From: Psammoneis japonica
Taxonomy: Eukaryota
Direction of reading: 5' to 3'
Assembly (NCBI GenBank): GCA_008632985.1
Contig: QPGO01000014.1
Coordinates: forward strand, 248,001-312,000
DNA length: 64,000 nt
Both the position numbers and the translations under genes were made by a program. Below are positions 21,380-47,723 of the stretch, one piece after another. Positions within the stretch are counted from its first letter, which is position 1, and every line of letters starts with the position of its first letter. The notes beneath the pieces are model-generated. The model worked only from the letters and a program-made list of their open reading frames with translations, searched no databases and was not told where the DNA came from.

Positions 21380-22870
21380 ATCGTTAAATAAAGGGGTACA
21401 TAAAATCCAATACAAAATGTCTGACCGGTATAACAGGTACGTTTATGCTAGTCGTAGCCTCATATGGTGTATTGGAAGGGGCGGTGCGTGGGTCTGAAAT
21501 GTGTGGCGGAAGGGTCGCGCGAAGCGCGATAGGGGATGGGGAGAAAAAGGGTGGACCGAGAGTGCGGACAGACGGTTGACAGGAGGAGTTGGTAAATGAC
21601 AGTGGGGTGGCGGAGGAGAAAAGCTTGATGCGTAGAAAGATGGGTGGAGAGAGCAAAGCCAAAGTTAAGGGTGGTCGGTTGCTGCTTTTTTTAGCTCAAA
21701 TTCGGCTGAGTGGCTCATGTTTTGCAGCATGATTTTTCCTGAATTTCACCGTGCTTCACCATGGTGAAAACAACAAGCCACAAGTCTGTGACGGAGGTGG
21801 TCCGTCTGCCAACTCTCACCCATTTTATGTTTGTGATGTGTCAAAGATTGCACACACATGAAAAGTTGGTAGATGGCAAACTGCGTTTTTGAGAAATGTC
21901 AATGATTGTCATCATCGTCGTGCTTCGATCGTGGTGCTGATGGCTCTCGTTTTCGTGCGCGATCGGGTGTGACTGTGTGAACAATTCTTGCATTCAAAAA
22001 TGAGCACTGTGAAAAACCTCGCTCAAATGCAACAGCAATTTCAGGATGAACGTGGGGATGACCCCCCTCAAGACTGAGGATTTGGGAGGCCCAAAGCGAG
22101 GGTGTTGAAGTGTGGTGTGAAGAGCCAAAGCTGTCTTGAGAGAGTTGTTTCCAGGCCACGTTGGAGTTGGCAAGGAGATCGGAGGGTTCGAGGAGTGAGT
22201 TGGTGCAGGTGGAAAAGGATGGCTGAGAGTTGGAAAAGGAGGCAGGACTTGTCCAGGGTGGTTTGGGAGGAAGGGGTGGCATGGACGAAGAGGAAGTTTT
22301 GGCAGAGGTGCCAAAGAAAAAGGTGCGGAGGTGGCAGTCGATGCCACCAAGGTGGTCGAGGATGAAAGGGAGAAGGAAAAGACCGGCTTGGTTGACAGCT
22401 TCAATGATGTCGGATCTGTGAGCAGATGATGCAGAGCAGCCGAGGAGCTTGTCCCGTGTGCTGCTGAGGTGAGCCTTGTTAAGTGGGTTTTCAGGGGCAG
22501 GCAAACCAGGTGCAGGAAGCGGGGCAGCTGGCGGCACAGTGGCATCTGTGGCCAAAAATTGGTGGGTGGATGGGGCATTGGGTGGTGCAGAGCCAGGGGT
22601 GAGTTGGGCGCCTGCGTCAGCGGGGCGTTTGAGGGGGTGGTCAGATGGGAGGCCGGCAGGGTCAAGGTGTGGTGCTTGTTGTCGAGAAGAGCACAGGCCG
22701 CAGAGGGGGGCCAAAGTTTTGATTGTGGTGCAGACGGTGTCTCAGATGTGGTTCGAGAGATGGCTTTTGTGCATTTTAGAGCAGGCAAAGGCATGGTCTC
22801 CACAAGGGTCAGGGCGGGTGTGGCCGCATGGGCAGTTGTGTTGGAGCAGGTTGAAGATGTTGCAGGGAGG
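21380..22870 (-). mobile_element. 5'-truncated non-LTR retrotransposon 3' end with restriction-like endonuclease domain (degenerate), split by an insertion
   Basis: Minus strand reads CPCGHTRPDPCGDHAFAC (CCHC knuckle), NHI*DT, RPAD, LATDATV, LPFILDHLGG and WASQILSL, which continues LNFGFALSTH beyond the 21669-22067 insert. Confidence 0.7.
21669..22067. mobile_element. 399-bp non-autonomous DNA transposon, TTAA target duplication, GG...CC termini (Kolobok-like)
   Basis: aaag-TTAA|gggtggtc...gacccccc|TCAA-gact. Removal restores the reading frame ILSLNFGFAL of the host retroelement. Confidence 0.65.
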
Positions 22871-23689
22871 CGCAGCTTGCGTAAGAGAAGGAGTGGTGGC
22901 GGGGTCATTCGGGCATTTGCGCGCGACTTACATTGGACTGGCATGCAAACGGACAAGTGCGCATGGTGTTGAATTCAATTTTTTGTTAAAAAAAAATCAT
23001 CACATCATCACAACTGTCATTTTTCTCACAACAAAAATTGAAAATGACTGAAAAATTGCCACATTGCACAATGCGGCAGCGGAACAACCCACGAACAATG
23101 TTGGACGCTGTTGTTGGCAGCTTTGTGTGTCGCTCTGTCATGCGTCATGTGTTTCAGTCTCTTGACATGAGATGGGACAAACAGCATGGAAAATCAACAC
23201 CCCAACATGCACCCGCCCTGTGATCCGCCGTGTGGCTTGCCAGTCAGTGTGGGCAAGCATTGCTGCCTCCGCATTTGCCAATGTTTTCTCACCCTCCAGC
23301 GGGGATGCCCATCACTTCAGTTCCTGTCACTGAGCATTCTTTTGAGCCACCAGTGCCACACCCAACTTGGAACCCCCACCTCAATTGGTTTTGGAGAAAG
23401 ATTGGATCTGCTTTTTTTCAAGGTCGGAACATTTTGAAGCAATCACCATTCTGTCAATCTATTCTCATTCATCCTGATGTAAACGAGGGCTGGTTGCATT
23501 CTCTTTTGCGTCAACTTCTCAATGATGGGCTGTTCAAGGTCACCTCAGATTGTGGCAAGTGTGAGACACATGATCCGTTGACTCTTTGTGCCTGTGCTGA
23601 TCAGTGCAACTGCAAAAAGACTGACCGTGTTTTGAAAACTTCAGCAGACAAACTGCCAGAAATGTGCTGTTCTCCATCCTTTCAATGCA

Positions 23690-25990
23690 CACCTCCCCCA
23701 TTGTCAGTGGGGGCGCCACCGTCACATCCTCCCTTGCCCCAAAATCATCCCATGCATTCAGATCCAGATTGTGGCCCAGTTCTTGAGGCACCAACAAATG
23801 CCTCTGACTCACCTCCTTTGGTGCCAACAAAACATTTGCATTGTTTCTATTTCTTGGGTGATTTGAGGATGTTCAAACAGTCTGTCTTGTGTGAAAAGCT
23901 CTTTGGTCAAGGCATGTGTGATGCCAAGATAGAAGAGATCTGCCAAAGTCCATGCAAGAACCAGATTTTCAATGTGAATCAGAAAGGACTCTGCAGAATT
24001 GGTCAGGAGTCATTGCTTCGTAAGCTTGCAGAATTTGTGGCTCAACTGGAAGAGTTGCCAAAGAAGCAGGCACTGCAGTCAGTTTTCGAAACCGCTTCAG
24101 AACGAAGCGCGCACAAAGCAGCTCATGAAAGGGCACAACGAAAGTCTTGCACGGAACAAACACAGTGCAATGTTGCGAATGACAAACCATCATTGAGTGC
24201 CATGGACACCTCTGGGAAGTCTTCTTGTTTTGACAGCGCACAGGAGAATCTAGAGTGACTGTTGCAAAATGAGTCTCAAGAAAAGGACGACAGAGCAGAA
24301 TCTAGAAAGCAGATTCTAGAAAGCAAGGTGAAAAGTGCATGTTGTCCACAAGGTCTCCCGGGAGCAAAATGGAGCAAGAAGCCGGAGGCAAATCCTCATC
24401 AGGAATCCTCGAATGATCTCGATGTCAGCAAGAATTCTCCTCCATTGTTTTGATGCATGCCTCCTGCATTGTCAGCGGGGGTGCCACCGTTGTGTCCTCC
24501 CTTGCACCAAAATCATCCCATGCACTCAGATCTGGATCGTGGCCCAGTTTTTGAGGCACCAACAAATCTGTCTCACTCATCTCCGTTGGTGCCAACAAAG
24601 TTTCAGAATTGTTTCCACTTCTTGGGCAATTTGAAGACATCCAAACATTCTGTCTTGCATGAAAAGCCTTTTGATCAAGGCATGTGTGATGCTGAGATAG
24701 AAGAGATCTGCCAAAGTCTGTGCAAGAACCAGGTTTTCAATGTGAATCAGAAAGAACTCTGCAGAATTGGTGAGGAAATGTTGCTTCGCAAGCTTGCAGA
24801 ATTTGCAGCTCAACTGGAAGAATTGCCAACGAAGCGGGCATTGCAGTCAGTTTTTGAAACCACTTCAGAATGAAACGTGAACAGCAAAGCAGCTCGTGAA
24901 AGGATGCAACAAAAGTCTCGCATGGAACAAATGCAGTGCAATGTCGTGAACGACAAACCATCATTGAGTGCCATGGACACCTCTGGGAAGTCTTCTGGTT
25001 TTGTCAGTGCACAGAATCTAGAAAAACTGTTGCAAAATGAGTCTTGAGAAAAGGACGACAGAGTGGAATCTAGAAAGCGGAATCTAGAAAGCGAGGCAAA
25101 AAGCACGTGTTGTCATGAACGTCTCCCGGGAGCAAAACAGAGCAAGAAGCCTGAGGCCAATCCTTGTCAGGAATCCTCAAATGATCTCAATGTTGGCAAG
25201 AACTCTCCTCCATTGTTTTGACACATGCCTCTTGCATTGTCAGCAGGGGTGCCACCGTTGTGTCCTCCCTTGCACCAAAATTATCCCACACATTCAGATC
25301 CGGATCGTGGCCCAGTTTTTGAGGTGCCAACAAATCCGTCTGACTTGTCTCCGTTGGTGCCAACAAAGTTTCAGAATTGTTTCTACTTCTTGGGCAATTT
25401 GAGGATGTCCAAACATTCTGTCTTGTGTGAAAAGCCTTTTGATCAAGGCATGTGCAATGCCGAGACAGAAGAGATCTGCCAAAAAGTCTGTGCAAGAACC
25501 AGGTTTTCAACATGAATGAGAAAGGACTGTGCAGAATTGGTGAGGAAATGTTGCTTCACAAGCTTGCAGAATTTGCAGCTCAGCTGGAAAAATTGCCAAC
25601 GAAGTGGGCATTGCAGTCAGTTTTTGAAACCACTTCAGAACAAAATGCAAACAGCAAAGCAGCTTGTGAAAGGACACAATGAAAGTCTCCCACAGAACAA
25701 ATGCAGAGCAATGTCGCTGCCGACAAACCATCATTGAGTGCCGTGGACACATCTGGCAAGTCTTCTGGTTTTGTCAGCACCCACGAAAATCTAGAAAAGC
25801 TTTTGCAAAACAAGTCTCAAGAAAAGGACGCTGGAGCGGACAGAAAGTGGAATCTTGAAAGTGAGGCAAGAAGCAAATGTTGCAATGAAGCTCTTCTGAG
25901 AGTGAGACAGAGCAAGAAGTCTGAGGGGTGATTTCTTGTCAGGAATCCTTGAATGATCTCGATGTCAACAAGATTTCTCCTCCTTGGGTG
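23690..25990 (+). repeat. Three tandem ~768-bp (256-codon) units in a degenerate coding region of an unidentified element
   Basis: ttgtcag...gccaccgt...cctcccttgc recurs at 23701, 24469 and 25237 (spacing 768). More diverged partial modules lie at ~26150-26800. Confidence 0.9.
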
Positions 25991-28028
25991 GGGCATGCAC
26001 CTTGCTCTCCAACTGCAGGCACATTGCATCAGCATCTCATTTGCAACCATTTGCAACCCTTTGCAACCCTTTGCTTTCATCACCAATGAAGTCCACACCC
26101 GCAGTCCTCAATGCTCCAACAAAGTCCCCTCACCAAGTTTCCTCAGCTTCAACAAGGTCCTTGGACCCAAAAGCTGTGTGCTTCTCGAGACATTTGTGGA
26201 CATCCAGCAAATGTTTGTTGATCAGAAAATTTAAACATCAAGGCATCGGTGCAACGGAGACTAAGAAGATGTGCCAGACACTGCACGAACACAATTTTTT
26301 CAAGGTCAATGATGAAGGCCTTTGCAGGATTGTCCAAGATTCTGTTCAAGAAATGTGCGACCAAATTGAAAGATTTGCCAATGAAGTGGGTGTTGCACTC
26401 ATGTGTGAAACCGTTGCAGGCTTGACTGACTTTTTGCAGTTCTCAGGACATTGTTGTGTGTCGAAAGGGTGCATGTTGCATCAAAAATGCATCAGCCAAG
26501 GGATCCGGGAGAACGAGATCAGAAAGATGTGCTGAACGCTCTGCAAGAACAAGCTTTTTGTGGCCAATGCCAAAGGCCTTTGCATGATCACCCGAAGGCC
26601 ACAGAACAAACTCAAGAAACTTGTGACTCAGTTGAAAGAATTGCCAACAAAGCGGGTTCTACAATTGCTTTTCGAAACCTCTTCAGAATGAAAGGACTTG
26701 AATGTGGCTTGTGAAAGGCCCGGGCAGTCATTCAAAGAGCATGAGAACAATGTCAAGCGGCCAAGTTTTCTGAACAAATGCAGAGCCCTTGTTGGAGAAC
26801 AGCAGATGATGGTTGCATCAGAGCAAACACACTCCCGGAAAAGGATGTGCCAAGCTCTAGTCTGCAGCAGATGATGAGAACTGATCAAAAGATGACAGTG
26901 TGGGATCTCCAAATCGAGGGCATCAGCAGCAAAGATTGTCAGAAGTCTCTGCACGAAGCAGAAATGCGCCAAACACACGACAACGCGGCGACAAGGGGAT
27001 CGACCAGTCGGCATCACAAGGGGGGCACGATTGCAATGATTTGCAAAACCACAACCTGCAGAGACTGATGAACATTGCCAAGAAGCTGAGTGCAGAGACA
27101 GACTGGGGGGCAGCTGACGAGCTGGAAACCGCTGGTGAAAGCTGCGGCTGTCCAACGGCGCATTTGCAGCATGCAGTGCATGTGGTGGACGGTGCCTTCA
27201 GCCTGCTGGCAGAGTGAAAATGATGACTTGCCGTGTCGACCCTGGTTTGTCAGGCTGGGCCTTCTCGTCATCAACCCAGCTTGCTGGGCTCTGTGTGAGG
27301 GAGGCAGGTGCCTGGCATGGTGCATTTGCAATCACTTCTGCTCTAGAGAGAAAGTGCAGGGTGCAGCACCAGCGCTGCACATCACACGAAAGATGATGAC
27401 AACAACTGAGCCTCGCGCCTCTGTCTTTTCGAAACTTTGCGCAGCACAGTCTTCTGAGGCAAGGCACAAAGATGACCGACTTTTCCTCCCTTGAAACAAT
27501 TTGTTCGAAGGACATGCCGGCACACCATGTTCACGCACACGACACGAAGAGCATGCACACCGCACCGACCGGCATTGGACAGGGCCCTCCACTCCATCCA
27601 AGGATAGAGGGCCCCACTGCTGCCGGTAGAGAGCAGTACAGTAGCTAGCCACTAAGTAGCACCTTAGCGAGTACACACTGTACTGACGACGACTCTGACC
27701 CGTCGTACTCGTGGCGGAGGGGTGTAATTCGGGGTGTAATTTTGGGGTGTAAAAACGCGCGACGCGCGTTTTTACACCTCCAAAAGAAAATTACAGCAAA
27801 CAAATAGGCCTCCAGAGGCTTGTACTATTTTTTTCCTGTAATTTTCGTGCGAGAGCAGACCGCATTGGCGGCAGAAAACGCAAAACACCTTGCGCCGCGA
27901 TCCGTTTGTCATTTAGTATCCATCTAAAGACAACACGAAACGACTTGTAAGACAACGATAGACTACGTTGTCTGTAGATACAACGCTTCTGTAGATACAA
28001 CGCTTGACTACAACGTCTATTAAGCATC

Positions 28029-29435
28029 ATGAGTGCTGCGGCCTCTATGGAAGATTTTGATCTCTGTATGATCATTCTGCTTCTACAGTTTCTTCTTCTT
28101 GAAATCAATACTTTGATATTGAATGCAAAGCAAGCCCTTGACGAGTTGATTAAGGAAGAGCTACGAAGAAACCGAACCCCTGAACGAGAGAAAGATCGTC
28201 CATCATGGAAATCTCTTTTCGAATCGACGAGCAACAGGGTGTTCCGTCGCATGTTTCGCATGAAAAAGAAATCATTCGTGAAACTGTGCAATAAAGTTTG
28301 CGACAAAGTGGGAAAAGACACTTTCTTACCAGAAGATTACATCAACAGCACGGAATACAAGAAGAAGACAGATGCTGCGACAGGATTCAGGGGTGGTGCC
28401 ATTCCTGGAGAGATGAAAATGGCCATTGGTATCAGGTTGTTAGCTGGCGCGAGTTACTTGGATTTGTTGTGGTCGTTCAGCGTGTCGGACAGAACGGTTT
28501 ACAAGACTTTTCATCTTTTTGTGGCATGGGTTCTTCTTACATTTGATTTTCCGCTAGTGCCAGCGCTCCGAAGGAAAGATTGGGCATTTCTGAATCACAT
28601 AAGTCAAGAATTTTCGCAATCGTCCTCCGGCGTTTTCCTCGGCGTTATTGGTGCAATAGATGGTTTGTGCATTCGTATCCGCTGTCCATTCTTATCAGAA
28701 GCTGATGACCCCGGAAACTACTACTCTAGGAAAGGATTCTTTGCCCTGAACGTGCAGGCAATCTGTGACAGTAAGAAAAGAATTTTGTGGGTTAGTCCAT
28801 GGCACAAAGGATCCTCTCATGACTCTACTGCTTTCGATGAAACCGGATTGTCAAGCTTGCTGCAAGAGTTGGCAGACGAGCTAGAACGACTCGGACTTTT
28901 TCTTGTTGGTGATTCGGCGTACAACTTGGTGAAGACGCTCTTGATACCCTATGCCGATGCTCGCCCTGGCTCTGACGAGGATGCATTCAACTTCTGGCTG
29001 AGCAATAGCAGAATTACGATCGAGTGCGCGTTTGGTGAAATCATCATGCGCTGGGGAATATTTTGGCGCACGATGAGATTTTCCCTGCCACTTACCAAGG
29101 ATGTTGTCAAAGCTGCAATGCTTCTTCATAACTTCCTAATTGATGAAAGGGAAGAGGAGAGCGACCCAGAAGATGTAGAATACTTCAGGGACTTCTCTCT
29201 TAACAGCATGTCGGACGAGGCGGCAGTGTCGAGCGAGGTCCCGGAGGCGCTTGTCACTGACAACAATGAACCACGACCTCGCGGCCGCCGAAGCAACGAC
29301 GAGATGGAGTCCAAAAGGACGGCGGAGAAGATTCGAGACAATCTTCTCCTGTCCTTGAGTTTGGCCGGCAAAGGAAGACCGGAAAGAAACGGGACAAAGT
29401 ACAATAAGTATGGTCATGTCTACATGGATTACTAG
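28029..29435 (+). CDS. Intact PIF/Harbinger DDE transposase (DDE_Tnp_4/HARBI1-like)
   Basis: GAIDG, YYSRKGFFALNVQAICD, GSSHDS, LVGDSAY, FNFWLSNSRITIECAFG and LLHNF motifs. Confidence 0.93.
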   Translation: MSAAASMEDFDLCMIILLLQFLLLEINTLILNAKQALDELIKEELRRNRTPEREKDRPSWKSLFESTSNRVFRRMFRMKKKSFVKLCNKVCDKVGKDTFLPEDYINSTEYKKKTDAATGFRGGAIPGEMKMAIGIRLLAGASYLDLLWSFSVSDRTVYKTFHLFVAWVLLTFDFPLVPALRRKDWAFLNHISQEFSQSSSGVFLGVIGAIDGLCIRIRCPFLSEADDPGNYYSRKGFFALNVQAICDSKKRILWVSPWHKGSSHDSTAFDETGLSSLLQELADELERLGLFLVGDSAYNLVKTLLIPYADARPGSDEDAFNFWLSNSRITIECAFGEIIMRWGIFWRTMRFSLPLTKDVVKAAMLLHNFLIDEREEESDPEDVEYFRDFSLNSMSDEAAVSSEVPEALVTDNNEPRPRGRRSNDEMESKRTAEKIRDNLLLSLSLAGKGRPERNGTKYNKYGHVYMDY

Positions 29436-29443
29436 CTAGACAT

Positions 29444-29531
29444 GCGGGCTCTCAATAAATGTTACTGTAGCAACTTTTTTAGAAACGGCGGGCTCTCAAT
29501 AAATGTTGCTGTAGCAACTTTTTTAGAAACG
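29444..29531 (+). repeat. 44-bp direct tandem duplication
   Basis: gcgggctctcaataaatgtt(a/g)ctgtagcaacttttttagaaacg x2 with one mismatch. Confidence 0.9.
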
Positions 29532-29806
29532 TCCCATCTTTTTGATTTGTTTAAGACGGGTTCTTGCAACTATCAAAACAGGAACTGCCTAAGACGTCTC
29601 ATCCTTGCGGTCTCTCCAACACTTATCAGAGTTATCACTACCAAGACGTTACTGATCATTACCAAATGTCCCACAACTAACATGCACTATAGCATCATTT
29701 TTTCTCCTGCTGATTCGTCTCAAAGTCATTACGACTAGCTCTCTACAGTACTCTAGAGAGAGGGCTGGCTACTCTCAGGCCCTACTCGCTCTCATCACTC
29801 GCAGCC

Positions 29807-31180
29807 TCATTGCCTACCTGCCGCAGGGCTATCTTGTAGCGACAGCTTCTTCACTTCATGGGCAATCTCTGTACGTCGTTTCTTGATTACGCGAAGCATC
29901 GCTGCCTTGCTGTCAGGGCTAATGTCCTCCGACATCGCTGCTCGATCGCGACGTTCGCCTTGTTTTTCAAAAGAGTCAAACAATGAATCAACCTTCGTCG
30001 ATTCAGCTTCCTTCTCCTTTCGGGCAAGAATGTCAGAAGCCTTTTGTGTCAAACCGCCGACGCGCTCCTGTTGACTCTCGAGCTTTGCCAGGTTCTGTTG
30101 GTGCTGGTCTTTCACCGTCACTTTCTTGGGAGGTGTGGAATCATCTTGGGCTCCCTCAAAACCGGATTCATTCTTCACCCAGTCTTTCACTTGTCCACCA
30201 CTGCCACTGGCCAGCAGAAATCCTTCTTTCCGGTCAAGCAAGCAAACCCAGAGCAACCACCTGTTGCCGCCGCAATGGTCTGGGAAATCTTCGATCCTCT
30301 TGGGGCCATTGCCAGTCTCTTTGCCCCATTTGCGTGAGGCTTTTTTGCATTTTGGCCTCAAGTGTGAGAGCCAAACTTCTTTCATGAAATCAGACTCGTG
30401 TTTCTTGGTGATGATTGCGACGGCATTGGGATCGGTCATCAGTCGCATCTTCCGGCACATCCTTGACAATGCACCTAATTCCCTCCGGACGAGAGACAAC
30501 AAACTCGGCATTTTCAAAGTCCTCCTCTTGAATCTGTGCGAAGAATGCATCCGTCGGATCGTTGGACAGGTTTTGTTTGGCACGGCCCTTTTTGCCAGTC
30601 ATTGTTCCCTGCACACTGCCACGGCACTTTTGTTGAAGCATGGCGGCGGCCGCACGAATCGCATCTTCGGGAGTGCGATTTTCCTGGTGCTTGCTCGTGG
30701 TGGAGTGCCAACAATTCTCAAGGTTCGAAATCACCATTGGGATCCCACCGTGCTCGTCGTCGTTCTGGAGCATGAAGACCTTGTCATTCTTTCCACACTT
30801 CTGAAGGCTTGGGTGCACCTCCGTGCAGTCTACATGTTTCCAGTGCGAACCAAAACCTTGGCAATGGCATCCTTGCTTCTTGTTTGGTTTGTTGGAAGGT
30901 TGGGAAACCTGTTGGCCCTCCATTGCTTGTAAAGGGCAGTCGAAAACTCACCCATTACAGGGCACTTTAAAGTTTTTGCTTTGCTCTTTGCATCTTGAAC
31001 GCCTTCATCTTGAAGACTTGTCATCAGTGAGTGCAAAGCAGGGTGCAGCTTCTTGTCTTCAGCTGCCTGGTGTGGCTCGGCCATGGCTGGAGCACTTTGA
31101 GTTGAACGGAAGCGTTGCAACAGTCTTACAACAGATAACTCTCCACCTTAGCGTAATGTCCCCGTCAGGTGTATGTTGCA
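29807..31180 (-). pseudogene. Harbinger accessory (putative DNA-binding) ORF, frameshifted and TpA-depleted
   Basis: Overlapping minus ORFs 30830-31120, 30390-30923 and 29807-30583. Trp-rich segment VWLSHLRPKCKKASRKWGKETG...CGGNRWLLWVCLLD. No Tyr. Confidence 0.6.
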
Positions 31181-31513
31181 GTAACGAATAATCGTAGAGG
31201 ACATTGTTGGCTGACGTGATTTCCCGCCAGCTGCTTTTTGGGGTCGGAGGGAGGTGGATTTTTACAGAGGGGTAGTTTCACACTCTCGTACTCGTGCGAA
31301 AATCGGCTGTAATTTTGGGGTGTAAAATTAGTTCGTTTGGGGCAATAATCTAAAGAGGCATCGTACAATTCAAAATGACCAACAAAATGTCCGTCATCTT
31401 CTGCAAAGAGACTCTAGTACTTTTTTAGAGACGCGTTCTCACAATACACGGTTGTGTTGCTTCAACGCATTGATTTGTTTTGGGTTTTATCATCTTTAGT
31501 AGGATGGTCTGTA

Positions 31514-34500
31514 ATGAATTCCATCTGTAGATCCTATTTCAGGGCTGCAACTCTGTTGCTAGCAATGTCATCGTGCGTGGTTCATGCGGGTTGGTCATCG
31601 GCAGTGAGCAGAAAGGAAGAAGCGATGCTCGATCAACTCATTGTTGAGGCACAATCAATTCCAGCGATGATGAAGTTTTTCGTAAAATACAAGAACCGCA
31701 AGGGCATGAAATTCGCAAGGAGGCAAGCAAAAGGTAATGAACTCCTAAACCACGTGAAGAAGCTAAAGGTTGTAGCTCTTTATCCGCGCAACAAGAGCGC
31801 ACTGAAAAGGTTGACGACAAGCGAAAACATTGATTACGTAGAGCTTGTCCACGAAGTGCATGCACTACCTTTTCAGCGAAACAATAACTCGGAGGTAGGT
31901 AGAGGTCGGCGCCATCTTGAGGAGGGGTCAACGAACTATGCACTGGACATGGTTGAGGCGTCTGATTTGTGGGACATACCAGCTGCCGAAAAGATTTCAA
32001 TATGTGTCGTCGATAGTGGGTATGGACTAGGACACCCTGATCTACCCCAAAACGTCACTGGCACATCAACTGGGGGTATGTGGTACGATGATGAAAACGG
32101 CCACGGCTCGCACACCGCTGGAATCATCAGCGCCATAGGCACCAACAATATTGGAATTGTGGGAGTCATGAAGGACCCAAGCCGATTCAATTTACATATT
32201 GCAAGGTCACTGGATGGCAACGGTGAAGGCAACGAAGCTGACCTATTGGAAGCATTCGAAGGTTGCGTTTCAGCTGGTGCGAAAGTGATAAGTATGAGCT
32301 TGGGCCTCAGAAGCGAAAGCGAAAGCCTTCGGACCGCTCTAAAAGACGCCTACGATGATGGTGCTCTGATAATCGCATCTTCCGGAAACGATGGCGCGTC
32401 AGACTATCTTTATCCTGCGTCCTACCCGTACGCCATGTCGGTCGCTGCGATCGATAGAGAAATGAATGTAGCCGGATTCTCGCAATTCAATGACCAAGTC
32501 GAAATCGCAGCTCCAGGGGTTGATATTCTCTCAACCGTCACATTCGACGGAGGGGCAACCTTTGGATATGATGCCTGGAGTGGAACTTCTATGGCGGCTC
32601 CATTTGTTTCAGGAGTTGCTGCTCTTGTATGGAGTCACTTCCCGGAGTGCACAAATCATCAAATCAGAGCTGTTCTCATTCGAACGGCACTAAGTGATGG
32701 TGGTAGATGCAACCACGATACTGGGTTTGGTCTTGTACAAGCAAAAGCTGCATATGAAATGCTAATTAGGGATGGGTGCGTTGCTGGTGATGTCTCTCCG
32801 AATCCGCTGTCCACTGGCGCTCAAGGTGGTTGCAATCAAGATCCAAAATACATACCGCAACCGACGGCCGCACCATCTCAGTTCACCTGTGGAGACAGCG
32901 CATTTCGCTTAGAGCTAACTACCGACAAATGGGGAGCTGAGACGTCATGGGAAGTCTTGAACTCGAAGGGTGACAAGGTTGGCTCAGGGAGCGGCTATCG
33001 CAGCTCTACATCCTACGTTGAAAGTTTATGTCTTGTCCCGGATGCTTATTCATTTACAATCAGGGATTCGGAGAAAGATGGGATTTGTTGCGGGTTTGGA
33101 AGAGGCTCGTATTCGATTTACTACGAAGATGTTCTAATTCATTCTGGCGGGAACTTTATGGAACTTGAAACATTTTCCTTTGGTCACCATCTCTCAACAC
33201 CTGCTCCAACCTTCTCACCAGCCGCAAATTGCAAAGATGACGACAGTTGGATCCACACAAATTCGGCAGGGAAAAAGAAGAAATGTAAATATCTCAAGGA
33301 CAAGCCATCGTCACGATGCCAAAAGATAGGAGTCAACAGCGACGGAGACGCTGTGTCGGGTTACACCGGTTGTCCCGTTTCTTGCGAATCATGTCCGAAT
33401 GAACTACTAAGGAACGAAGATCCTAGCTCGCCTCCTACTGCTGCTTCGACTCCAAGGCCTACACTTGCTCCCACTTTGCCTACAATGTCGCCTACTATGC
33501 TTCCAACAAAATTGCCTACTGAAAGACCGTCACGAACACCTACCACGTCACCCACAAAGGCGCCTACTGCAGACCCTACACTTGCTCCCACTTTGTCTAC
33601 AATGTCGCCTACTATGCTTCCAACAAAAGCACCAACTGAAAGACCGTCACGAACACCTACCACGTCACCCACAAAGAAAACCCCAAGGCCTACTATCACG
33701 CCATCACGAGCACCAACGCATGCTCCTACCCAACTTCCGACCTCGCAGCCGATGGGAATTCTTGACGGGGTACTCGCTCCTCCCAAAACTGCCGAACCGT
33801 TCCCTTCACCAAGCGGCAAGCCAACGCCGTCTCCAACTCCTGAACCAACGCTTACACCAACGGTCTCGCCCACGACGCCTCCATACACAAATACCCCCGT
33901 GTGCGATAATGATCTCTGCGGCGTTTGCGAATCAGTGTGTTCCAGGAATTCCGGTTCAAGACCATACACCGAGCACGCGCCAAATGGAGACCGTTTCTTA
34001 TGCTGCAAAGGCAAGGAGGCTTGCATGAACAAAAGTCCGGTTGATGCGAGCACGTATGACTACCTCTGTTGCCAAGGACAAAAGGCCTGTTCGGAATCGT
34101 CTGTCAAGCTGCCCAAGAAGGGAATGTGTTGCTCCGGTGTTGAGTCATGTTTGCTTGCAAGATTCTCGCGAGCTCGTGAGAATCCAGAGGAGCCAAATAT
34201 CGGCGTACGTTGCGAGGGAACTAAAACCTGCGCAAGTACCAATTTCAAAGGTGCTGGTCCCGTTGATTTATGCTGCACTGGTGGTGATCAGACTTGTGAA
34301 AAGTTTGGAGAAAGTGGTGCGTCGGGGCCAGAAGATGGAAGTCGGGTCGAGTGCTCCAACGGTGATCAGGTTTGTTTAGAGGGGGGCTTGGCAGAAGCGA
34401 GTGGGTCGGTTGAAGTTTGTTGTAGGACAGGGAGTGTATGCAACTCTCTTTGTAAAGAGGGTTGCAAATGCAGGCCACCGTCCGAAGACGATGCCGCGTT

Positions 34501-34549
34501 TACATGCAAAGACAAATACACGGCTCGGATTTGCGGTCGCAAACCCTGA
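31514..34549 (+). CDS. Secreted subtilisin-like serine protease (S8) with P/T-rich stalk and Cys-rich C-terminal module
   Basis: Signal peptide and catalytic motifs VVDSG, GHGSHTAG, GTSMAAP. LTTDKWGAETSWEV...DGICCGFGRGSY domain. A 117-bp in-frame duplication lies at 33458/33575. Confidence 0.92.
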   Translation: MNSICRSYFRAATLLLAMSSCVVHAGWSSAVSRKEEAMLDQLIVEAQSIPAMMKFFVKYKNRKGMKFARRQAKGNELLNHVKKLKVVALYPRNKSALKRLTTSENIDYVELVHEVHALPFQRNNNSEVGRGRRHLEEGSTNYALDMVEASDLWDIPAAEKISICVVDSGYGLGHPDLPQNVTGTSTGGMWYDDENGHGSHTAGIISAIGTNNIGIVGVMKDPSRFNLHIARSLDGNGEGNEADLLEAFEGCVSAGAKVISMSLGLRSESESLRTALKDAYDDGALIIASSGNDGASDYLYPASYPYAMSVAAIDREMNVAGFSQFNDQVEIAAPGVDILSTVTFDGGATFGYDAWSGTSMAAPFVSGVAALVWSHFPECTNHQIRAVLIRTALSDGGRCNHDTGFGLVQAKAAYEMLIRDGCVAGDVSPNPLSTGAQGGCNQDPKYIPQPTAAPSQFTCGDSAFRLELTTDKWGAETSWEVLNSKGDKVGSGSGYRSSTSYVESLCLVPDAYSFTIRDSEKDGICCGFGRGSYSIYYEDVLIHSGGNFMELETFSFGHHLSTPAPTFSPAANCKDDDSWIHTNSAGKKKKCKYLKDKPSSRCQKIGVNSDGDAVSGYTGCPVSCESCPNELLRNEDPSSPPTAASTPRPTLAPTLPTMSPTMLPTKLPTERPSRTPTTSPTKAPTADPTLAPTLSTMSPTMLPTKAPTERPSRTPTTSPTKKTPRPTITPSRAPTHAPTQLPTSQPMGILDGVLAPPKTAEPFPSPSGKPTPSPTPEPTLTPTVSPTTPPYTNTPVCDNDLCGVCESVCSRNSGSRPYTEHAPNGDRFLCCKGKEACMNKSPVDASTYDYLCCQGQKACSESSVKLPKKGMCCSGVESCLLARFSRARENPEEPNIGVRCEGTKTCASTNFKGAGPVDLCCTGGDQTCEKFGESGASGPEDGSRVECSNGDQVCLEGGLAEASGSVEVCCRTGSVCNSLCKEGCKCRPPSEDDAAFTCKDKYTARICGRKP

Positions 34550-37079: not shown

Positions 37080-37939
37080 CTTGTCAAGAACGAAGATTGA
37101 GGAACATTCTTTGAAGGCAGCCTACTCTAGCTCAAACGAACAACATGATTATCTTCAATACCCAAGGAGTCGAGATCGTAGTCAAATATGTAACACCATA
37201 GCGCCAGACGAGATCGAAGGCGGTTAGCGCTATATCTATGATTTGGTGAATACCTATACAGCATGCTAATGACGGCACACAAATTGTGAATAGCTGCAGC
37301 GCGGCCATAAAAATGTATCGTTTTGCACCGCTGGCAGGCACTCCAGCCGCATTCGTCTCTGCAGAGACATTGTGTTCCTGAGATCACCAGCAGCTTTTTT
37401 TTCTTCCCAACCTGTGTGAGTTGGGTCAAAACTGCCTGAGGTTTTGTGCTTTCTCCTGTCAAAGCACGCGCCATTTCCTCTCTCTCTCTCTCGAACGAAC
37501 TCTCTCTGCTTTTTCCAGAGGCCTCAGAACAATGACTCAACTTGGCCCCAAAAGCAAAGCAAAAAAAAAAGTTCAATCGGGGGGGGGGGGGGGGGGCAAG
37601 AACTCAATCAATCAATCAACTCAACGATTGCCAGTTAATGCTGGCACCCTCTACGGACTTTTGGCCGGCTGGTTACAGGACTCTGCAGAGAAATGCTCCA
37701 GACTGGCATCTAAAGAAGCCTGTTTGAACAAGGCACACTTGATGTGCAATCAAGGAGCATCTCCGTCAGTTGACCTGCCTGAGCAGGGCCCCAGTGCAGG
37801 ATGCTGCACGGCTGAAATGGAGCCATTGGTTTTTCAGATTTGATGGAACAGGTCCCCGGCACAGCTGATGACTTTTAAACAAACCAAACTTGAAATCTGC
37901 AGCATGAGGTCCAAGTCAAAGGTGCAACAGTTGGGCATG

Positions 37940-40900
37940 CTCGTCTCATCCTCCTGTTGTTGTGCACAACAAAGTGGGCAAGGGTGAGTTGTCGTCATCA
38001 CTTTTTTTCCATGGGTTCATTGATTCAAGGCAGTGCTGCAACCCATTTGCACAGCACAGCCCTTTCCGCTTGTGGTTGCATGTCGACTCCCAGAGTCCTT
38101 GATTGACGTTTGTGGGTGGCAGCGACATTGGCAAGCTGCGACCATTTGAAGGTGTGGTCCCCAGACAGGAGTGTGACAAGTGTCCCTGAAAATGGCAGGC
38201 AAATTCCTGAGACAGTTGTTCTCTGCTGCAGTGAAAGTGATGACTTGCATGAGCATCCAGTTCTTGCACAGCTTGTTTGCTCAGTTGCAGGTGGGCAGCA
38301 TTGTTGCGGTGCTTCCAGAGGCATTGTGGCATTTCCACAAGTTGCTTGATCCATCTCTGCACCCAGTTTGCAACAGTTTTCCTGGATGCTCAAAGGCGGA
38401 AGTGTTTGTTCTGTGCAGTTGCCCATTCTTTGGTCATGCACCCTTCCAGGAGTCTGTCCCAGCCAATGACATGTTGCGCTGCAGTGGCCCTGTGCAAGGT
38501 TGGCCTGGTGAAGGGATTGGCAGTGGCTGGGAGATGTCTGTCATTGCACCATGCCTGAAGGTGATCTTGTGTGGCTTCAGCAAGTCCAACAGCAGTGTCG
38601 TTCTTGTCAATCCACTTGATGTGTTTTTGCAGGAGTTTGTTCCACTTGGCCATGGCCTCCAGGCAAACTGCTGTGTGGTTGGTGTTTTCATTCTCCTTGC
38701 AACATCTTGGACATCTGGAATGGTCCTGTGTCTTCCATTGCTGAAGCCATTTGCCAACACCGCAGATTCCAGTGGTGTGCTTGGCTGGCCATTGCCTGCA
38801 TCCTGTGCTGAGTTGGTTGGCTGCATTGTCTGTGGCACCCCAGTGTTGATGCAATGAAAGCTCTCTGGCATGAAGAGGTGTTTCTGATGGACCAAGCATT
38901 GCATCAGCTTGGTTCTGCAGATGTGATTGAACAGTTGTTTGGGCAATTTTGTGGAGAGCTTGCATCCCCCCATGCAAACCAGCCACATTTTGCCTTTGAC
39001 ATTGCACTGGCTGGCATGGTGATGCTCTGTTCCTTGTTGTGTGTTGCCACTTGGCTTTTGCAAGATTGTCCATCTCAATGTTGAGTCTGGTCCATCCACC
39101 CAGCTTGCATCTGGGTCACGAGTCTTGGTGTCCTTTGAACCACCAAAACTTCCACTTGACAGGGCTTTTTGTGAGCTTGTTTTTTGCTGCGCTTGGTGCA
39201 TCAAACTTGTTTGATCTTGGCATGACTCTCCTGCAAGGGCAAGAGGTCTTAAGGAGTGCTTGTTTGCCATTGCACGCTGTTTCTGCCATGCCGTCCTGGA
39301 TGCCTTGGTGTGCACAGATGTCTTTGACGGTGCAGATGATGGTGCGCAGGCCAGCAATTTCTGCTCAGCAAGATTCAACATTGCCTGGGTGCCCCGGGAT
39401 CACATTCGTTCCTGTGACATGATTGTTGTCCAAAGGTCCTCGCACAGTGAATGCAGATGTTCCGAGTGTGTCTTTTGCCAAGCCATTGCTTGCTGCAATG
39501 GCAGCTCTGTTGCATGTGGCATTGGCAATGCAGGCTGGGCTGTTGTCCAGGGCGATGCTGGAGTTGCACCATTGCTTTTCTGGTGGGTGTTGGAGTGTCT
39601 CCTTTCCTGGAGTGTGGCAGGTGTGGCAGCCTCATGAGTTGTTGGCAGGCATGGGGAGGAGCCCGTGTGGCAGATCCTCCATGTGTTGTTTCCTCTGTTG
39701 CAAATCCCAGTGCATTGCATGTCCTGGGGCGGGCGTGTTGCTTCTGCAGGGACAAATCACCTGTGATCTCCACAAGTGCATCTCCCACTTGCTGGGTGGT
39801 GTGAGCTGCCTCCAGCAGTCAGTCACCAGATGTTGACAGATGTGGTCTTCCATTGGCAAGCAGAGCCAGACCCATGACTGTTCTGTCACTTCCTTGTTGG
39901 ATGCTCTCATGCATGTGGCATGGAGAGCCATCCTCCACAGGCTCTAATTGGAGGAGGAGGGTGTGCCTTGGATGGGCCAGCGACATGGTGATTGAAAGGA
40001 GGGGTCAGATTTTTCACCCCAGGCTGACTCTAGAATGCTCTTCCCACCTCCTGATGTGATGTCCGCTGGGGTGGTGGCCCACAGGCAAGAGCAGCACCTG
40101 TTGAGTGCGGCCAGTTTTGCACCATGGAGCCCTTCATTGGCAAACCTTTCCATCAGGAAGGAGTTGGTTGCTTGTCTTTTCCGGAGTTGTGCAGTGTCTT
40201 CCTGGATGATGATGTTGTGCTGGGACATGAATTTCCACAGATGCTCAATCCAGGATGGAGTGGCTAGAATGCCGCACTTTGAGCATGGTGCATCAAGAAA
40301 CCTTCCGCTGACTCCAATTTCAAGCCTGTGTTTCTCAAGCAGCACTCTTGTCAGCTCTCCAGTGATCAAGTCTTGTTTCCTGTGCTTCACAAATGCTTTG
40401 ATGTGTTTCTTGAACATGGTGAACTTGATCGATTCAAATCTGAGACCTTGAAACTGTTTTGGGCCATGCAGGACTGCTCTCAGAAAGGAGCAGCGCAGGC
40501 CAGCTCTTGGCAGGCCTTGCCAAAGAATCGGAGCTTCGATGTGCTTGCATTCTTTGGAGGTCAGGGTGAGAGCTAGAAGGGGGCAATCTGGGGCTTTCCA
40601 GATTCACTGTGTGTCAGGGACAACCAGGCATCTGATTTCGAGAGGTGTCCAGAGAAGACCCGATCTGCCCAACTTTCTGCTTGCTTCTGGAGAGTCTCCA
40701 CCACTTTGTTGCAGTTCCTGTCAGGAGCTGGCCACACTCTGAGAGTGCTTTTGGCTTCGCTTGGGTCCAGCCAGGGTGTCATTTTCTTGTTTCTTTGTTG
40801 ATCCTGGATGCACATGTGTGGGTTGGTTTCATCGGCTGGATCGACAGTCTCTTCTGCACAGCCCCATTTCCCATTCTTCCACTCAAACTCAATCAAGTGC

Positions 40901-43900
40901 CACCAGCATTTGTCTGGTTGGAAATCACCTCAAGCGACTCTCGTGCCACCTGCAAAGCAATCCAGACCTTGCTGGGGCCTTCTTTCTTGGGAATGAGCAG
41001 GTCCACACCTTCTTGTCTCCATCTCTTTGGGGCCTGTTCCAGCTCCAGGTGCTCCGAGCGGGTTCGATTCCCATCATTTGGTAATTAACTTTTTCCAAAT
41101 CCGTTTTTTGCCAAATCGAAGGGCAAGTGTGCACTTTACATGCATTTTCGGGTGTACACTCACCTTTCGATTTTCGAAACGATCAAAATTGAAGGAGTTA
41201 ATTGCGCTAAACTGCGCAGAAAATCGGCCTCTCGCGTGATGAAAAGCAGATCACCTGGAGCTGGAACAGGCCTTGGAGCACAGCCCACGATGCAGAGGAA
41301 GTTGGCCATCGAGGTGTTCATTTGTGCAAGCAGTGGATCATCATTGCATGACGCTTGGAAGGGGGTGGGACAGAGGGCTGATGGACCTGCACAAATTTTC
41401 TCCTTGGCATGCTTCCATGAAGCTGTGTGTTCATCCGCAATGCAGGGAGGAGGTGGAGGGGTGCAGTTGTCTGGGTTTTGGAGTTGCAACACGTGTTCTT
41501 TGATGCACCCATTGGCACCATCTGGAACTTGGCAATTGCCCTCCAGAATGGCATTGGTGTGTTGTCTGATGCCCAGGAATTGAAGGTTGTTGATCACAGG
41601 TTTGGTCATGAGGTGGGTCTCTTTGGTCTGATGCAGTCTGTTCTTGCACTCCAGAAGGGGGGGGGGGGGGCACACTCGATTTCTTCTTTTTCCATGACTT
41701 CTCTGTCATCTTCCCCTTTGTGTTTCTCCAACAGCTGTGTGAGTGCTGCCCTGGTTGGCTTGCCTGATGCTCTGTTGACCCTGTGGTTCTGGTCCCATTG
41801 CTCTTCTTTCTGCTGCAGGACTCTCAGTTGTCTTTCTTCTGTGGAGTTGTTGGCCTTGGCCAATTGCTCTGCTTGTTTCTCTGAGAATGTCTTCCTGTGC
41901 TTGCTTGCTTCTTGGGTGACTTTGTGGCGCTCTTTGCACCTGAACGTGAGCCCTTGTTTCAGTTGTTTGAGGGTGAGGTTGTGAGCTTTGAAAAGTCCTT
42001 GCATTTCTTTTCCAGTTTTCTGATTTTGCCAAAGCTGGTCTTGAGTTTTTTCCTGCACTGTGTCAGGGCCAGGTGCAGCTCCATCTGATTGGACACCCAC
42101 TTCAGCTTTGGTGGCCAGGGCACTCTGCCTCATCTAAGTTTCCTGCATTTTCTGTTGGCCAGCCAGCAGAACCCTTCAGTCCTGAGATCATTGGTGCATT
42201 CCCATTCATCTGTTTGATTGGGCAGTGGGAGACAGGCCTCATTCTTGGCATGTGTTTCAGGTGTGCCTGTTGCTGGATGACTCCTTTGTCCACCAGATTG
42301 GATTTGGTGGAGACAATGAATTGGGAGTGATCAGGCATCAGCCTTGCTGAGGCTTTCAAGGGTTGGCACTCTTGTTGGACTTGGCAAACATCTTCTGCAG
42401 AAGGGGTCCCCAGCTGCATCTGCGTCTTTGGAGTCAATGTTGATGTGGTGCGCTTTTGGCTGGGGATGTCCATCCAGCATGGCATCGGCTGGTTTCATGA
42501 CTTTTTTTGCCCTCAGTTCAACCGGCTTGCCAAGAAGTTCTCTGATCCTGTTCTCCATCTTACTCAAGTCAATCTGATTTGACATCATCACAAGTCACCT
42601 GCAGCACTTGGCATGTTTGGCTCCTTGCGGGGTCTCAGGATTCATGTGTCCATCAAACAAGTCCTTGAGAGTGAACTTGACAGTGTCCACCAGTTTGTTT
42701 GTGTCCATGTTGGTGCTGAGCCAGATGTCAAGCCAGCCATCCTTCTCAACATTTGGCTTGAGTTGGCAAAGGTGTGTCTTCATCCAGGCGAACGGCATCT
42801 TTTGGAGCTGATTCTTGAAGGCACCATCCTTCTGAGTGATGGGTTTGTTCTTGACACCACCAGTCTACATTGCCGCCACTGTGCTGCTGTCACCTGTGAG
42901 TTCACACATTCTGTCAATCATGGACCCAAATTTCCTGCCCAGTGTGACCTCTGCATTTTCTGCCTTGTTCTTCTTTTGCAGTTTTTGCCTGCTTGAGGGT
43001 GAATCTGATGAAGCAATTCCATTGGATCTTCTCTTTGGTTCCTTTCTTGTTTGTGTTGAAGATCGGGGCTGTCTTGGTGTTTTTCTTGCTTGTTGCATCA
43101 TCCTTTTGTTTTTGTGTTTCTGCTGTCATTGTTTCAGCTTTCTCCTTTGCCTTGGTTGAGTTTGCTTTGGTGTTCTTCTCATTTTCTTTGGGTGGCAGTG
43201 CTTCTTTTCTGTTCTTTTGTTTGTCTTTCTTGCTTGATTTTTTGTCATTGTTCTTGAGTGTGCTCTTGGTGTCACCTGGTTTTGTTCCAAGAGCGACACA
43301 TGGTGGGGTCATCTGGCACAGTTCAGCGGCCTTTGGCTTTGTTGTCTTGTGTCCATCTTCAGGTTGTTTCTTCTCTGGTTCTTGTTGCTTGATTTCCTTG
43401 TTGTTCTCTTTGGGATTGTTGTTTCTGGTGTGGTTGTTGAGCATGTCCTTTGGTTCCATGGCATCAATTTCCATGTCTTTGGTGGGATTGGGGTCACTGG
43501 CATCTTCATCTTGATCAGATTCCAAGTCGCCATCTTTCTTCATGTCCACCTTGTGAGGCTCCTTCTCTGGTGCTGCCACTTTGACTGCTTTGCATGAGTC
43601 CATGTCCTCAGGTTCATCTGAAGATTTGGGCCCCAGATCAGGGTCACTCTCATCTGGAAGGAAAGGAACTGGGTCCTTCTTTGGCAGTGGCTTCACTCCA
43701 AGAACTTTGCATGAGTTGTGTTGCTGGCATCATTGTCATCTGCCTGGCTGCTCTCCTGCTCTGAGTGGCAAAGGAGCTCATCATCATTGCCCACTTTGAC
43801 TTCACTGATGGAGTCACTGGAGCTCAATGATTTGTCAGAGGAGGAGTCCAAGGATGATGAACTGGAAGAGGATGAAGAGGAAGAGGAAGCAGAGCTGGAA

Positions 43901-44350
43901 GCAGAGACCATGAAGGAGTTGTCTTGGCTGATTTTTCCCTTCCTTTCTTCTGCTTGCTGCTCTTCTTTTTCTTCAGGGTTTTGTCTGCAACCTTGTTGCC
44001 TGTGCTGTCAAGGTTGTTGAGGACAAGCTTGTCAATGGGTGCTTCATCGGTGGTGTGCCAACTTTCACACACCTGGGTGTCTTTGTCTTTTTCATCATTG
44101 TTGAGAGATTTGAAGTGGCTCAACTTGGTCATTCCTTTGGGGGGTGATTGCATGAAGCTGTCATCGTCTGAGTCCACCTCCTGTGTGACAGCAAGTGTTT
44201 TTGCTTGATGGTGTTTTTTAGGGTCTTGAATCCATCACAGTCTTTGTTTTTTGTGATTGCATCTTTGGCTCCGCTGTCTTTGGTGGAGGAATCAAAGAAC
44301 TTGATGATGAGAGGTTGTTTCATTTTCATTGTTTTTGCTTGCTTTTCTGG
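37940..44350 (-). mobile_element. Degenerate Ambal-like LINE (ORF1 ~44330-42330; ORF2 with partial RT, RNase H, zinc knuckle)
   Basis: Fragments GCAP/KRWRQEGVDLLIPKKEG, IEFEWKNGKW, LRVWPAPDRN, WFKGHQD, CPRCCKENENTNHTAVC, IGWDRLLEG and LWKHRN. Many stops and frameshifts. Confidence 0.8.
41031..41272. mobile_element. 242-bp MITE with perfect 21-bp TIRs inserted in the LINE RT
   Basis: ggcctgttccagctccaggtg (41031-41051) and cacctggagctggaacaggcc (41252-41272), flanked by ttgg on both sides. Removal restores A-P-K-R-W. Confidence 0.9.
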
Positions 44351-45849: not shown

Positions 45850-46100
45850 TTGCAAATCTGCTCATCTTTTTCAACAAACATGTCATTGATGAAAGGCTGC
45901 AAGGTCTCCACATGCTGTGCATCCTCAAGGGTGGAAGCATCAAAGAACCCAAAGAATGCTCAGGCACCCAGGTCAGAAAGCGCCAGCTTTTCAGCTCCGA
46001 TGGAAAGATGCAAAGCATGCCATGTCCTGTGATTTGCACATTGAGAGGGCCATTGTGGATGTTTGTTTTGAGCTCTTGTTGTCTTCCAGCAAGGCTTGTC
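45850..46100 (+). mobile_element. Probable Copia RT fragment
   Basis: LKGGSIKEPKECSGTQVRK and AMSCDLHIERAI resemble Copia LKxxSIKEPxxYLG / MSSxxYVxxAI with Tyr replaced by Cys/His. Confidence 0.45.
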
Positions 46101-47511: not shown

Positions 47512-47723
47512 TGAAGAAATCGGCAATGACCAGACAATGACTGGTTCCTCGACCATCACAAAATTAACCCTTGATCGTAAATCTTGTGGCGTAATTTTTC
47601 AGGGAGTCAGGAGGGAGTAACGCAATTCCTCCTTTTGCAACGCTACTACAAAGCTGTCGAATCTATGCATTGCAGCAAAACACGTGTACACGACATACTT
47701 GAGTGTTCCTCGCGAAGCTGACC

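Follow-up and report, generated by a model that had tools for sequence, protein, structure and literature searches.

TA-specific transition hypermutation as the probable origin of a TpA-free patch in a PIF/Harbinger transposon

This report concerns a 64,000-nucleotide stretch of contig QPGO01000014.1 (positions 248,001 to 312,000; assembly GCA_008632985.1, Psammoneis japonica), hereafter the window, and in particular a 3.56-kb PIF/Harbinger transposon that lies within it. Over ~1.2 kb of this element (29921-31126) the dinucleotide TA, or TpA, has almost disappeared, and the window has four further TA-free blocks besides this patch. With a probability of about 80%, the patch was left by a transition hypermutation specific to TA (TpA to TpG or CpA) that covered nearly all of the accessory gene, here called ORF2 (for open reading frame, ORF), and spared the transposase. 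To judge from the relatives of its protein, the TA steps of ORF2 became TG or CA on either strand.

The depletion is real and far beyond chance. Between 29922 and 30830 (909 nt) a single TA is left, at 30476, where base composition predicts 50.8 (observed-to-expected ratio, o/e, 0.02). The rate measured in the TA-normal part of the same window (0.0378 per base, from 36,553 nt) predicts 34.3, and the Poisson probability of finding one or none is 4.3e-14. The CG dinucleotide is still frequent in this interval, with 51 occurrences against 60.2 expected (o/e 0.85). Both features had been pointed out in a first-pass annotation of this DNA and both hold, with the tract being slightly wider than first reported, as ordinary TA density returns at 29920 on the left and at 31127 on the right. 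The TA-free core extends over 29921-30830 (1 TA in 910 nt, o/e 0.02; CG o/e 0.85) and is continued by a partly depleted edge at 30831-31126, with 4 TA in 296 nt (o/e 0.21), which includes the 5′ end of ORF2 and ~40 nt upstream of it. The edges of the patch (29921 and ~31127) differ from the boundaries of ORF2, whose last 37 codons are TA-normal. Both strands were mutated, because TG (73) and CA (74) are balanced in the core, and because His (3) and Cys (4) are about equal at the alignment columns where the protein family has tyrosine.

Could the patch have been produced by the assembly? The contigs of a public sequencing run, X1 (depth ~60), match the window across the patch and the other TA-free blocks nearly letter for letter, with 5 differing letters in X1 record 3 (28191-30656) and 2 in record 7 (37579-39066). 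This speaks against an assembly artefact, though X1 possibly comes from the same sample as the assembly.

ORF2 itself (29807-31084, minus strand) is a hypermutated pseudogene convergent with the transposase gene. Its frame is split into three pieces (31084 to ~30840, ~30840 to ~30458, and ~30458 to 29807) by one frameshift near 30840 and a second near 30455-30460, and the pieces align in order to 35 full-length relatives. A 26-nt intron at ~30925-30960 was also considered and was rejected, since the family alignment shows a simple frameshift. In other copies of the element, as represented by X1 contigs, an extra C after 30839 removes the first frameshift. In word-indexed protein searches, no relatives of ORF2 were recovered with piece C or piece B; an exhaustive phmmer search with piece C gave 129 at E≤1e-3, among which 46 are at E≤1e-10 and 35 are full length (380-608 aa). 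The proteins of the family are listed as P0121-P0249. By tblastn, 36 of 80 related metagenome loci carry a member of the family, which there follows the transposase downstream, in convergent orientation; because of this recurrence, ORF2 is regarded as the regular second gene of this Harbinger lineage.

Tyrosine is absent from ORF2 pieces B (185 aa) and C (263 aa), and in piece B Cys and His each make up 4.9%, against 1.7% and 2.1%, respectively. The 129 relatives, pooled, have 2.7% Tyr, with 6 of them lacking it entirely, and the ORF2 regions of the 36 metagenome loci have a median TA o/e of 0.53. Nine columns of the alignment have Tyr in at least 40% of the 35 full-length relatives. At these columns the residues of the window copy are H, C, Y, C, F, H, C, H, C: His or Cys occupies seven of the nine, i.e., the products of TAY>CAY or TAY>TGY, and the single remaining Tyr falls in the partly depleted edge. 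Such a reading is found in 4 of 107 relatives, when those with at least 4 of the 9 columns covered are scored for Cys or His at half or more of the Tyr columns. Measured against these relatives, the loss of TA in ORF2 is mutational and not native, and the ancestor of the gene had Tyr and TA as they do. The outcome that the first-pass annotation had named as fatal to its proposal, namely that homologous accessory genes are natively poor in Tyr and TA, is not what the family displays.

The transposase gene (28029-29435, plus strand) acts as an internal control. It is an open frame of 468 aa with a match to the Pfam family DDE_Tnp_4 (PF13359; E 9.7e-23, cut-off 24.8 bits), and it has 317 relatives, the best of which is 70% identical over 99% of the query; the named ones come only from Thalassiosira, at 42-45% identity. 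The alignment-invariant residues D211, D295, and E332 are retained. The frame contains 47 TA (o/e 0.47, with 0.53-0.59 in host DNA), 2.8% Tyr, and CG at o/e 0.97, and at 11 columns where Tyr is the majority residue it reads Tyr nine times, Phe twice, and never Cys or His. All this occurs at a short distance from the patch, as the transposase stop codon is 486 nt away, and it agrees with the earlier description of an intact transposase of normal TA and Tyr content about 0.5 kb from the depleted tract. The intergenic DNA (29436-29806) is TA-normal too (o/e 0.88), and it carries, between the convergent genes, a tandem pair of 44-nt repeats (29444-29531; family D1, 98% identical).

How the TA sites are lost can be followed in pairs of related Harbinger copies on metagenome contigs. 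Locus L018, which is TA-normal, and locus L053 (TA o/e 0.08, CG o/e 0.92) share 93.2% identity over 1625 nt. The 68 TA of the former are read in the latter as TG in 35 cases and as CA in 23; 8 are unchanged and 2 have become something else, and 75 of 82 CG are kept. A second pair, L043 and L013, is 98.1% identical over 2115 nt, and of its 34 substitutions 22 oppose TA to TG or CA, 4 are at CpG, and 8 are of other kinds. The lost sites are not scattered: those lost in L043 all lie within 2609-3263 (14/14), 7 of the 8 lost in L013 lie within 3553-3735, and none of 20,000 shuffles in a permutation over 75 TA sites was as clustered (P<5e-5). The process acts in tracts of a few hundred bases (~180-650 bp) that differ between sister copies, and targeting below the scale of one element, suggested earlier for the window copy, is in this way seen independently of the window. 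Other related loci are TA-poor as well, such as L051 (o/e 0.02) and L049 (0.16); L010 has a TA-poor patch at ~2000-3000, inside its ORF2, and the patch of L043 lies over the start of its transposase.

These copies also inform on the context of the mutations. Of 84 polarised events drawn from three copy pairs, 28 fall on the strand where C comes after TA, against 10 (p 0.005), and 10 on the strand where A comes after it, against 29 (p 0.003). TG and CA outcomes are interleaved, and a runs test detects no strand-wise stretches (P 0.68), which points to independent single-site hits in a permissive domain and not to one processive pass along a strand.

The rest of the window places the patch in a wider frame. 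Its composition is bimodal, with blocks in which TA o/e is 0.03-0.09, CA and TG o/e are 1.6-1.8, and G+C is unchanged near 50%; when the TA-free blocks are pooled, TA, CA, and TG have o/e values of 0.05, 1.81, and 1.63, compared to 0.56, 1.15, and 1.22 in TA-normal DNA. CG is ~1 in TA-normal DNA and graded from 0.17 to 0.48 in the four other blocks, which are 1-1609 (TA o/e 0.09, CG o/e 0.30), 21531-27646 (0.088 and 0.48), 37501-46566 (0.04 and 0.20), and 54551-64000 (0.031 and 0.17). Cut into 128 windows of 500 nt, the stretch gives 73 that are TA-normal, none of them with a CG o/e below 0.6, and 55 that are TA-poor, of which 49 are below this value and 6, including both patch windows, are at or above it. 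Within the window, loss of CG is never seen without loss of TA, whereas loss of TA is seen without loss of CG. Taken together with L053, this supports a TA loss that is earlier and faster than CpG loss, and the idea that the two are decoupled, with TpA loss running ahead, is well founded. The same CG-retained, TA-absent state had been noted at 63780-64000, where it is indeed found (0 TA, CG o/e 0.84); the Copia end to which it was assigned could not be confirmed, as no Copia or other transposable-element domain was found there.

The repeats inside these blocks tell when the mutations occurred relative to duplication. The block at 21531-27646 holds a 768-nt tandem repeat (23670-25983), whose three copies are 94-96% identical in purine/pyrimidine code and differ by CA versus TG at 20-29 sites per pair; since the copies resolved the ancestral palindromic TA step independently, they must have been mutated in place, after the duplication. 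An LTR-like (long terminal repeat) direct pair in the last block (54908-55621 and 62528-63261, 7.6 kb apart) has 30 CA-versus-TG sites between its arms, and neither a reverse transcriptase nor an integrase domain could be detected in the DNA that separates them. Host sequence is targeted as well: part of the TA-normal host region 50174-51644 recurs, as a mutated duplicate, at 45083-45736 in the block at 37501-46566. The relation was recovered by BLAST in a purine/pyrimidine alphabet: of the 25 TA in the TA-normal region, 17 are read in the duplicate as CA (10) or TG (7), and 16 of 27 CG are read as CA or TG.

What do such blocks encode? A TA>TG/CA change makes no new stop codon, because TAA>TGA is still a stop and TAA/TAG>CAA/CAG removes one, and it ruins proteins by turning Tyr into Cys or His. 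For this reason the TA-free blocks are open in six frames and still without domain matches: Pfam gave no hit above the family cut-off in 142 ORFs of at least 90 aa taken from them, and an earlier set of 82 ORFs had no transposable-element domain in any block.

Is this copy of the element caught in the middle of the process? The first-pass annotation took it for a young element caught mid-process; on that view hypermutation is under way in this individual copy, and it reached the accessory gene first and has the transposase still ahead of it. Copy number varies along the element, and the X1 depth is 335 over 27671-28337, ~150-160 over 30339-31672, and 62.7, that of a single copy, over 29005-30338. 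Two X1 contigs at depth 178 (single copy ~60) overlap the window at 30617-30960, about a quarter of the patch, and here the comparison with other genomic copies recommended by the annotation can be made. The differences listed from the window copy (30668-30957) are at least 11, namely 5 of TA versus TG/CA, 3 at CpG, and 3 of other types. The other copies have TA at 30796 and 30949, where the window copy has CA; at 30831, 30930, and 30956 it is the window copy that has TA, and the other copies read TG or CA. Over the overlap the other copies retain ~2-3 TA where ~13 are expected, and are as TA-poor as the window copy, with no adjacent TG-versus-CA discordance among the differences listed. Had the ~10 losses been independent, discordance would be expected at roughly half of them, from the 35:23 split of outcomes given above. 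At least in 30617-30960, the comparison indicates that TA loss was inherited by several copies from a common ancestor and predates this copy. The few leftover TA sites kept mutating afterwards, in both directions between copies.

The notion of a young element under attack is only partly borne out, and it is rather unlikely as a whole. The variable leftover sites fit it, with five of the 11 differences listed opposing TA to TG/CA in both directions, and so do the intact transposase frame and the CG o/e of the core, whose 0.85 against 0.17-0.48 in the other blocks would make the patch the youngest of the window. On the opposite side, the copies share the TA-poor state of 30617-30960 without, among the differences listed, the TG/CA discordance that separates the tandem repeats by tens of sites (20-29 per pair), this copy has two frameshifts, one of which is absent from the other copies, and the most repeated part of the element (27671-28337, depth 335 against ~60) is TA-normal.

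Other explanations of the patch need to be weighed. A native composition, or a selection against TA in ORF2, may seem reasonable because some host coding DNA is TA-poor (16501-17000 has TA o/e 0.19 at 59% GC); given relatives with normal Tyr and TA, conserved Tyr columns that read His or Cys, a gene frameshifted twice, and a tract that starts 37 codons inside the ORF, its probability is close to nil. Equally negligible is an error of sequencing or base calling at modified bases. The TA-free blocks are likely modified DNA, and the sequence is present in the runs of one study only; however, the X1 contigs depart from the patch and from other blocks by 0-5 letters per 1-2.5 kb, the same signature exists in unrelated metagenome assemblies, and the amino-acid outcomes are exactly those of TA>TG/CA. 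A chimera deserves somewhat more thought: recombination or gene conversion may have joined a hypermutated ORF2 part to an unmutated transposase part, in which case the process need not be patchy. Patch edges that do not coincide with the ends of ORF2, with the last 37 codons left TA-normal, are what such an event would leave, and the family does rearrange, as a deletion derivative with a joint 28420>30617 demonstrates. Nevertheless, near-identical metagenome copies each have their own patch of TA loss, and BLAST in the purine/pyrimidine alphabet found no fully hypermutated relative of the element within the window, so that a chimeric origin is improbable.

A different chemistry would lead to the same letters. 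The T of TpA could be oxidised to 5-hydroxymethyluracil or 5-formyluracil by a dioxygenase of the TET/JBP type, and mispair with G to give T>C with no adenine deaminase involved. Base chemistry based on thymine oxidation exists in protists. TA is self-complementary, which makes T>C on one strand indistinguishable from A>G on the other, and the outcomes are near equal (73/74 TG/CA in the patch, 35/23 in L018/L053). The flank bias is less easily accommodated, because the preference for TA-C and the avoidance of TA-A match a known deaminase context, and under thymine oxidation they would have to be re-read as a preference for G-TA. On balance, this chemistry is possible but has low odds.

The preferred reading, TA-specific transition hypermutation, would proceed as follows. 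Adenine would be deaminated in DNA, with the resulting inosine read as G, by an enzyme resembling the tRNA adenosine deaminases, whose natural context is U-A. The T-A-C preference resembles the U33-A34-C35 context of the bacterial tRNA adenosine deaminase. A domain of silenced chromatin, or a transcription unit, may set where the mutations fall, and the CpG decay of the older blocks is probably a separate and slower outcome of cytosine methylation.

Some points weigh against this reading. The evidence from copy pairs comes from unassigned metagenome contigs, not from this organism, and L018 and L053 also differ at 17 sites by A>G or T>C within CA or TG, to which no direction can be assigned. 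Inside the window, polarity is drawn from protein relatives that are 26-52% identical. The argument for shared ancestry applies to the differences listed in 30617-30960, ~1/4 of the patch, and 29672-30338 is single copy in X1; in addition, owing to the flank bias, independent events could reach identical outcomes at a rate somewhat above 50:50. Finally, the deaminase step combines our own supposition with the candidate put forward in the preprint described next.

The closest known system is that of the chlorarachniophyte alga Bigelowiella natans, described in a 2026 preprint (bioRxiv 10.64898/2026.01.13.699255), which is compared here on the basis of its main text. The 15 mutation-accumulation lines studied there gave 302 nuclear mutations. 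Two integrated viral regions account for 231 of them, of which 230 were A>G or T>C, all on TpA, at ~6e-7 per site per generation. The genome contains 124 clusters depleted in TpA and enriched in CpA+TpG, and among its depleted coding sequences DDE endonuclease and reverse transcriptase are over-represented. The authors (Mettrop et al., 2026) propose, without testing it, an ADAT2-like DNA adenine deaminase; a term search of the main text returns no mention of CpG or Harbinger.

The likeness to the present case is strong. Both show changes restricted to TpA>TpG/CpA, regional depletion of TA accompanied by gain of CA and TG, foreign or selfish DNA as the target, and many TpA-depleted ORFs without a recognisable domain; here too, polarised TA>TG/CA changes dominate the spectrum. 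The differences are those of evidence, grain, and degree. In B. natans de novo mutation was measured, in viral inserts of 186 kb and 25 kb, whereas here it is deduced from sequence. That genome was scanned in 1-kb windows, with at least 3 adjacent ones needed, while the patches discussed here are of ~0.2-1.2 kb and lie inside single elements. The targets there are integrated viral regions; here they are a DNA transposon, a host-gene duplicate, and unidentified repeats. Saturation is reached in the present case (TA o/e 0-0.07) and CpG decay comes after it, compared to an o/e of 0.45 in the B. natans region derived from a nucleocytoplasmic large DNA virus. As for the genome itself, the TA-normal part of the window holds uninterrupted ORFs of 516-1083 aa, and B. 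natans genes have on average 8 introns (PMC13746701). In the literature on diatoms no report of this TpA hypermutation, or of a process similar to RIP (repeat-induced point mutation), was found, and the B. natans preprint was the only relevant match.

RIP, as known from Neurospora and other fungi, is also a set of dinucleotide-context transitions that ruins transposons and duplicated genes and leaves the order of the bases intact. Its direction is the opposite one: RIP turns C into T at CpA and raises TpA (RIPCAL, PMC2621366), while in the affected blocks of the window TpA has an o/e of 0.05 and CpA/TpG of 1.6-1.8, the reverse of the RIP pattern. Furthermore, RIP is triggered by duplication. 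Here the trigger does not follow copy number, because the multi-copy left end of the element (depth 335) has normal TA, while TA is missing from the single-copy stretch 29672-30338 (depth 62.7). The deaminases ADAT2/3, TadA, ADAR, and APOBEC, the last an editor of retroelements, have in common with the process proposed here A>G (or C>T) transitions, a 5′ U/T preference, and a use against selfish nucleic acids. They act mainly on RNA or on reverse-transcription intermediates; in the window a cut-and-paste transposon and tandem genomic repeats were mutated in place, which implies chromosomal DNA as the substrate. The CpG decay of methylated transposons likewise produces TG and CA, and the CG o/e of 0.17-0.48 in the older blocks is consistent with it, but this decay lowers G+C, and the blocks stay near 50%.

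With PIF/Harbinger transposons the element that hosts the patch shares a DDE_Tnp_4 transposase, a second gene inside the terminal inverted repeats, the shortness of these repeats, and a TTA at the right end. The second gene belongs to an undescribed family, with no Pfam match for the 14 relatives searched. Its structure, predicted with confidence (mean pLDDT, the predicted local distance difference test score, 82.7), has a mixed α/β N-terminal domain of ~290 residues (pLDDT >90), followed by a long helical hairpin. Fold searches with the whole model matched only this C-terminal hairpin (Foldseek best E 0.31; VIA best Z 8.7, over 65 residues), and a PDB sequence search returned coiled coils only. 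No Myb/SANT-like domain is among the Pfam, PDB sequence, or whole-model fold matches, the N-terminal domain having not been searched alone.

The right terminal inverted repeat lies at 31306-31327 (minus strand) and is followed by TTA at 31328-31330. The left one, at 27770-27797 (plus strand), was located by local alignment to the reverse complement of the right arm, and it pairs with all of its 22 bases once the left arm is allowed gaps of 1 and 5 nt. A joint in a contig, between opposite strands, connects 27768 and 31328. An extra partial copy of the right end of the element (27703-27754, plus strand; direct alignment to 31286-31327) abuts the left end, and a palindrome is formed there (27740-27784), with an inverted repeat of 22 nt, 91% complementary, around CGCGCG-A-CGCGCG. 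Because the left flank is the end of another element (27703-27784), no target-site duplication, expected to be the 3-nt TWA, can be read on this side. Plain BLASTN of the element against the 64-kb window found no other copy. The X1 contig that joins 28420 to 30617 skips 2196 nt and looks like a non-autonomous deletion derivative with both element ends, of which the depth suggests a few copies. In another run, X2, two joints within 28403-29096 (28403>28540 and 28762>29096) skip parts that end in CT..AC, i.e., GT..AG on the minus strand. They resemble a spliced antisense transcript across the transposase, a weak lead given that the flanks are of 29 letters and the run type was guessed as DNA. 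Contigs of X2 cover the transposase and host genes and none covers 22335-27670, 29672-31672, or 37676-41000, an absence that does not count as evidence where no contig joins across.

Other observations concern the surroundings. Two paralogous genes for secreted subtilases (Peptidase_S8; 31514-34549 and 47621-50878), both TA-normal and both with Pro/Thr-rich and Cys-rich tails, flank the block at 37.5-46.6 kb, and the duplicated region 50174-51644 corresponds to Cys-rich sequence that takes in the end of the second one and the DNA immediately after it. Within that block, 38501-44500 is asymmetric, with TG exceeding CA (e.g., 151 vs 90 and 136 vs 73 per kb), few A and many T on the plus strand, unlike the other blocks and the Harbinger patch, which are balanced; one strand may have been preferentially deaminated here, at both A and C. 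Some block edges are very sharp, such as that at 46567, where a run of 1059 nt with no TA gives way to DNA with one TA per ~15 nt, and that at 54566. Others are gradual, over 200-500 nt (21530-21870 and 37316-37876).

What does this patch add to the knowledge of genome defence? The first account of a process that strips a single dinucleotide from selected DNA, at rates up to a thousand times that of the background, dates from 2026 and concerns one alga. The phenomenon is already in print for that organism, and the window is probably a new and more extreme instance in another lineage. The same signature, carried to completion, appears in what looks like a different lineage, and its targets are a cut-and-paste transposon, a duplicated fragment of a host gene, and tandem repeats. 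The patches are smaller than one element, a grain that any model of targeting must account for. Also new are the succession of steps, in which TA loss precedes CpG decay, and the flank preference, in which the favoured TA-C context is a testable clue to the enzyme. There are practical consequences as well, because blocks that are open in all frames and have lost their domain matches will be mis-annotated as long novel genes, and the replacement of Tyr by Cys or His at conserved columns provides a simple test for the process.

More broadly, and as a proposal for which the odds are slightly below even, TpA-directed hypermutation may be a widespread genome defence of protists, present in a probable diatom and in unassigned relatives from the environment. 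It would saturate tracts from below one kilobase to the kilobase scale, follow a local mark (a chromatin domain, for instance, or a transcription unit) and not the identity or copy number of the element, prefer TA-C over TA-A as expected of an enzyme derived from a tRNA deaminase, and act before, and independently of, the decay of methylated CpG. If this is true, these protists would possess the AT-to-GC mirror image of fungal RIP.

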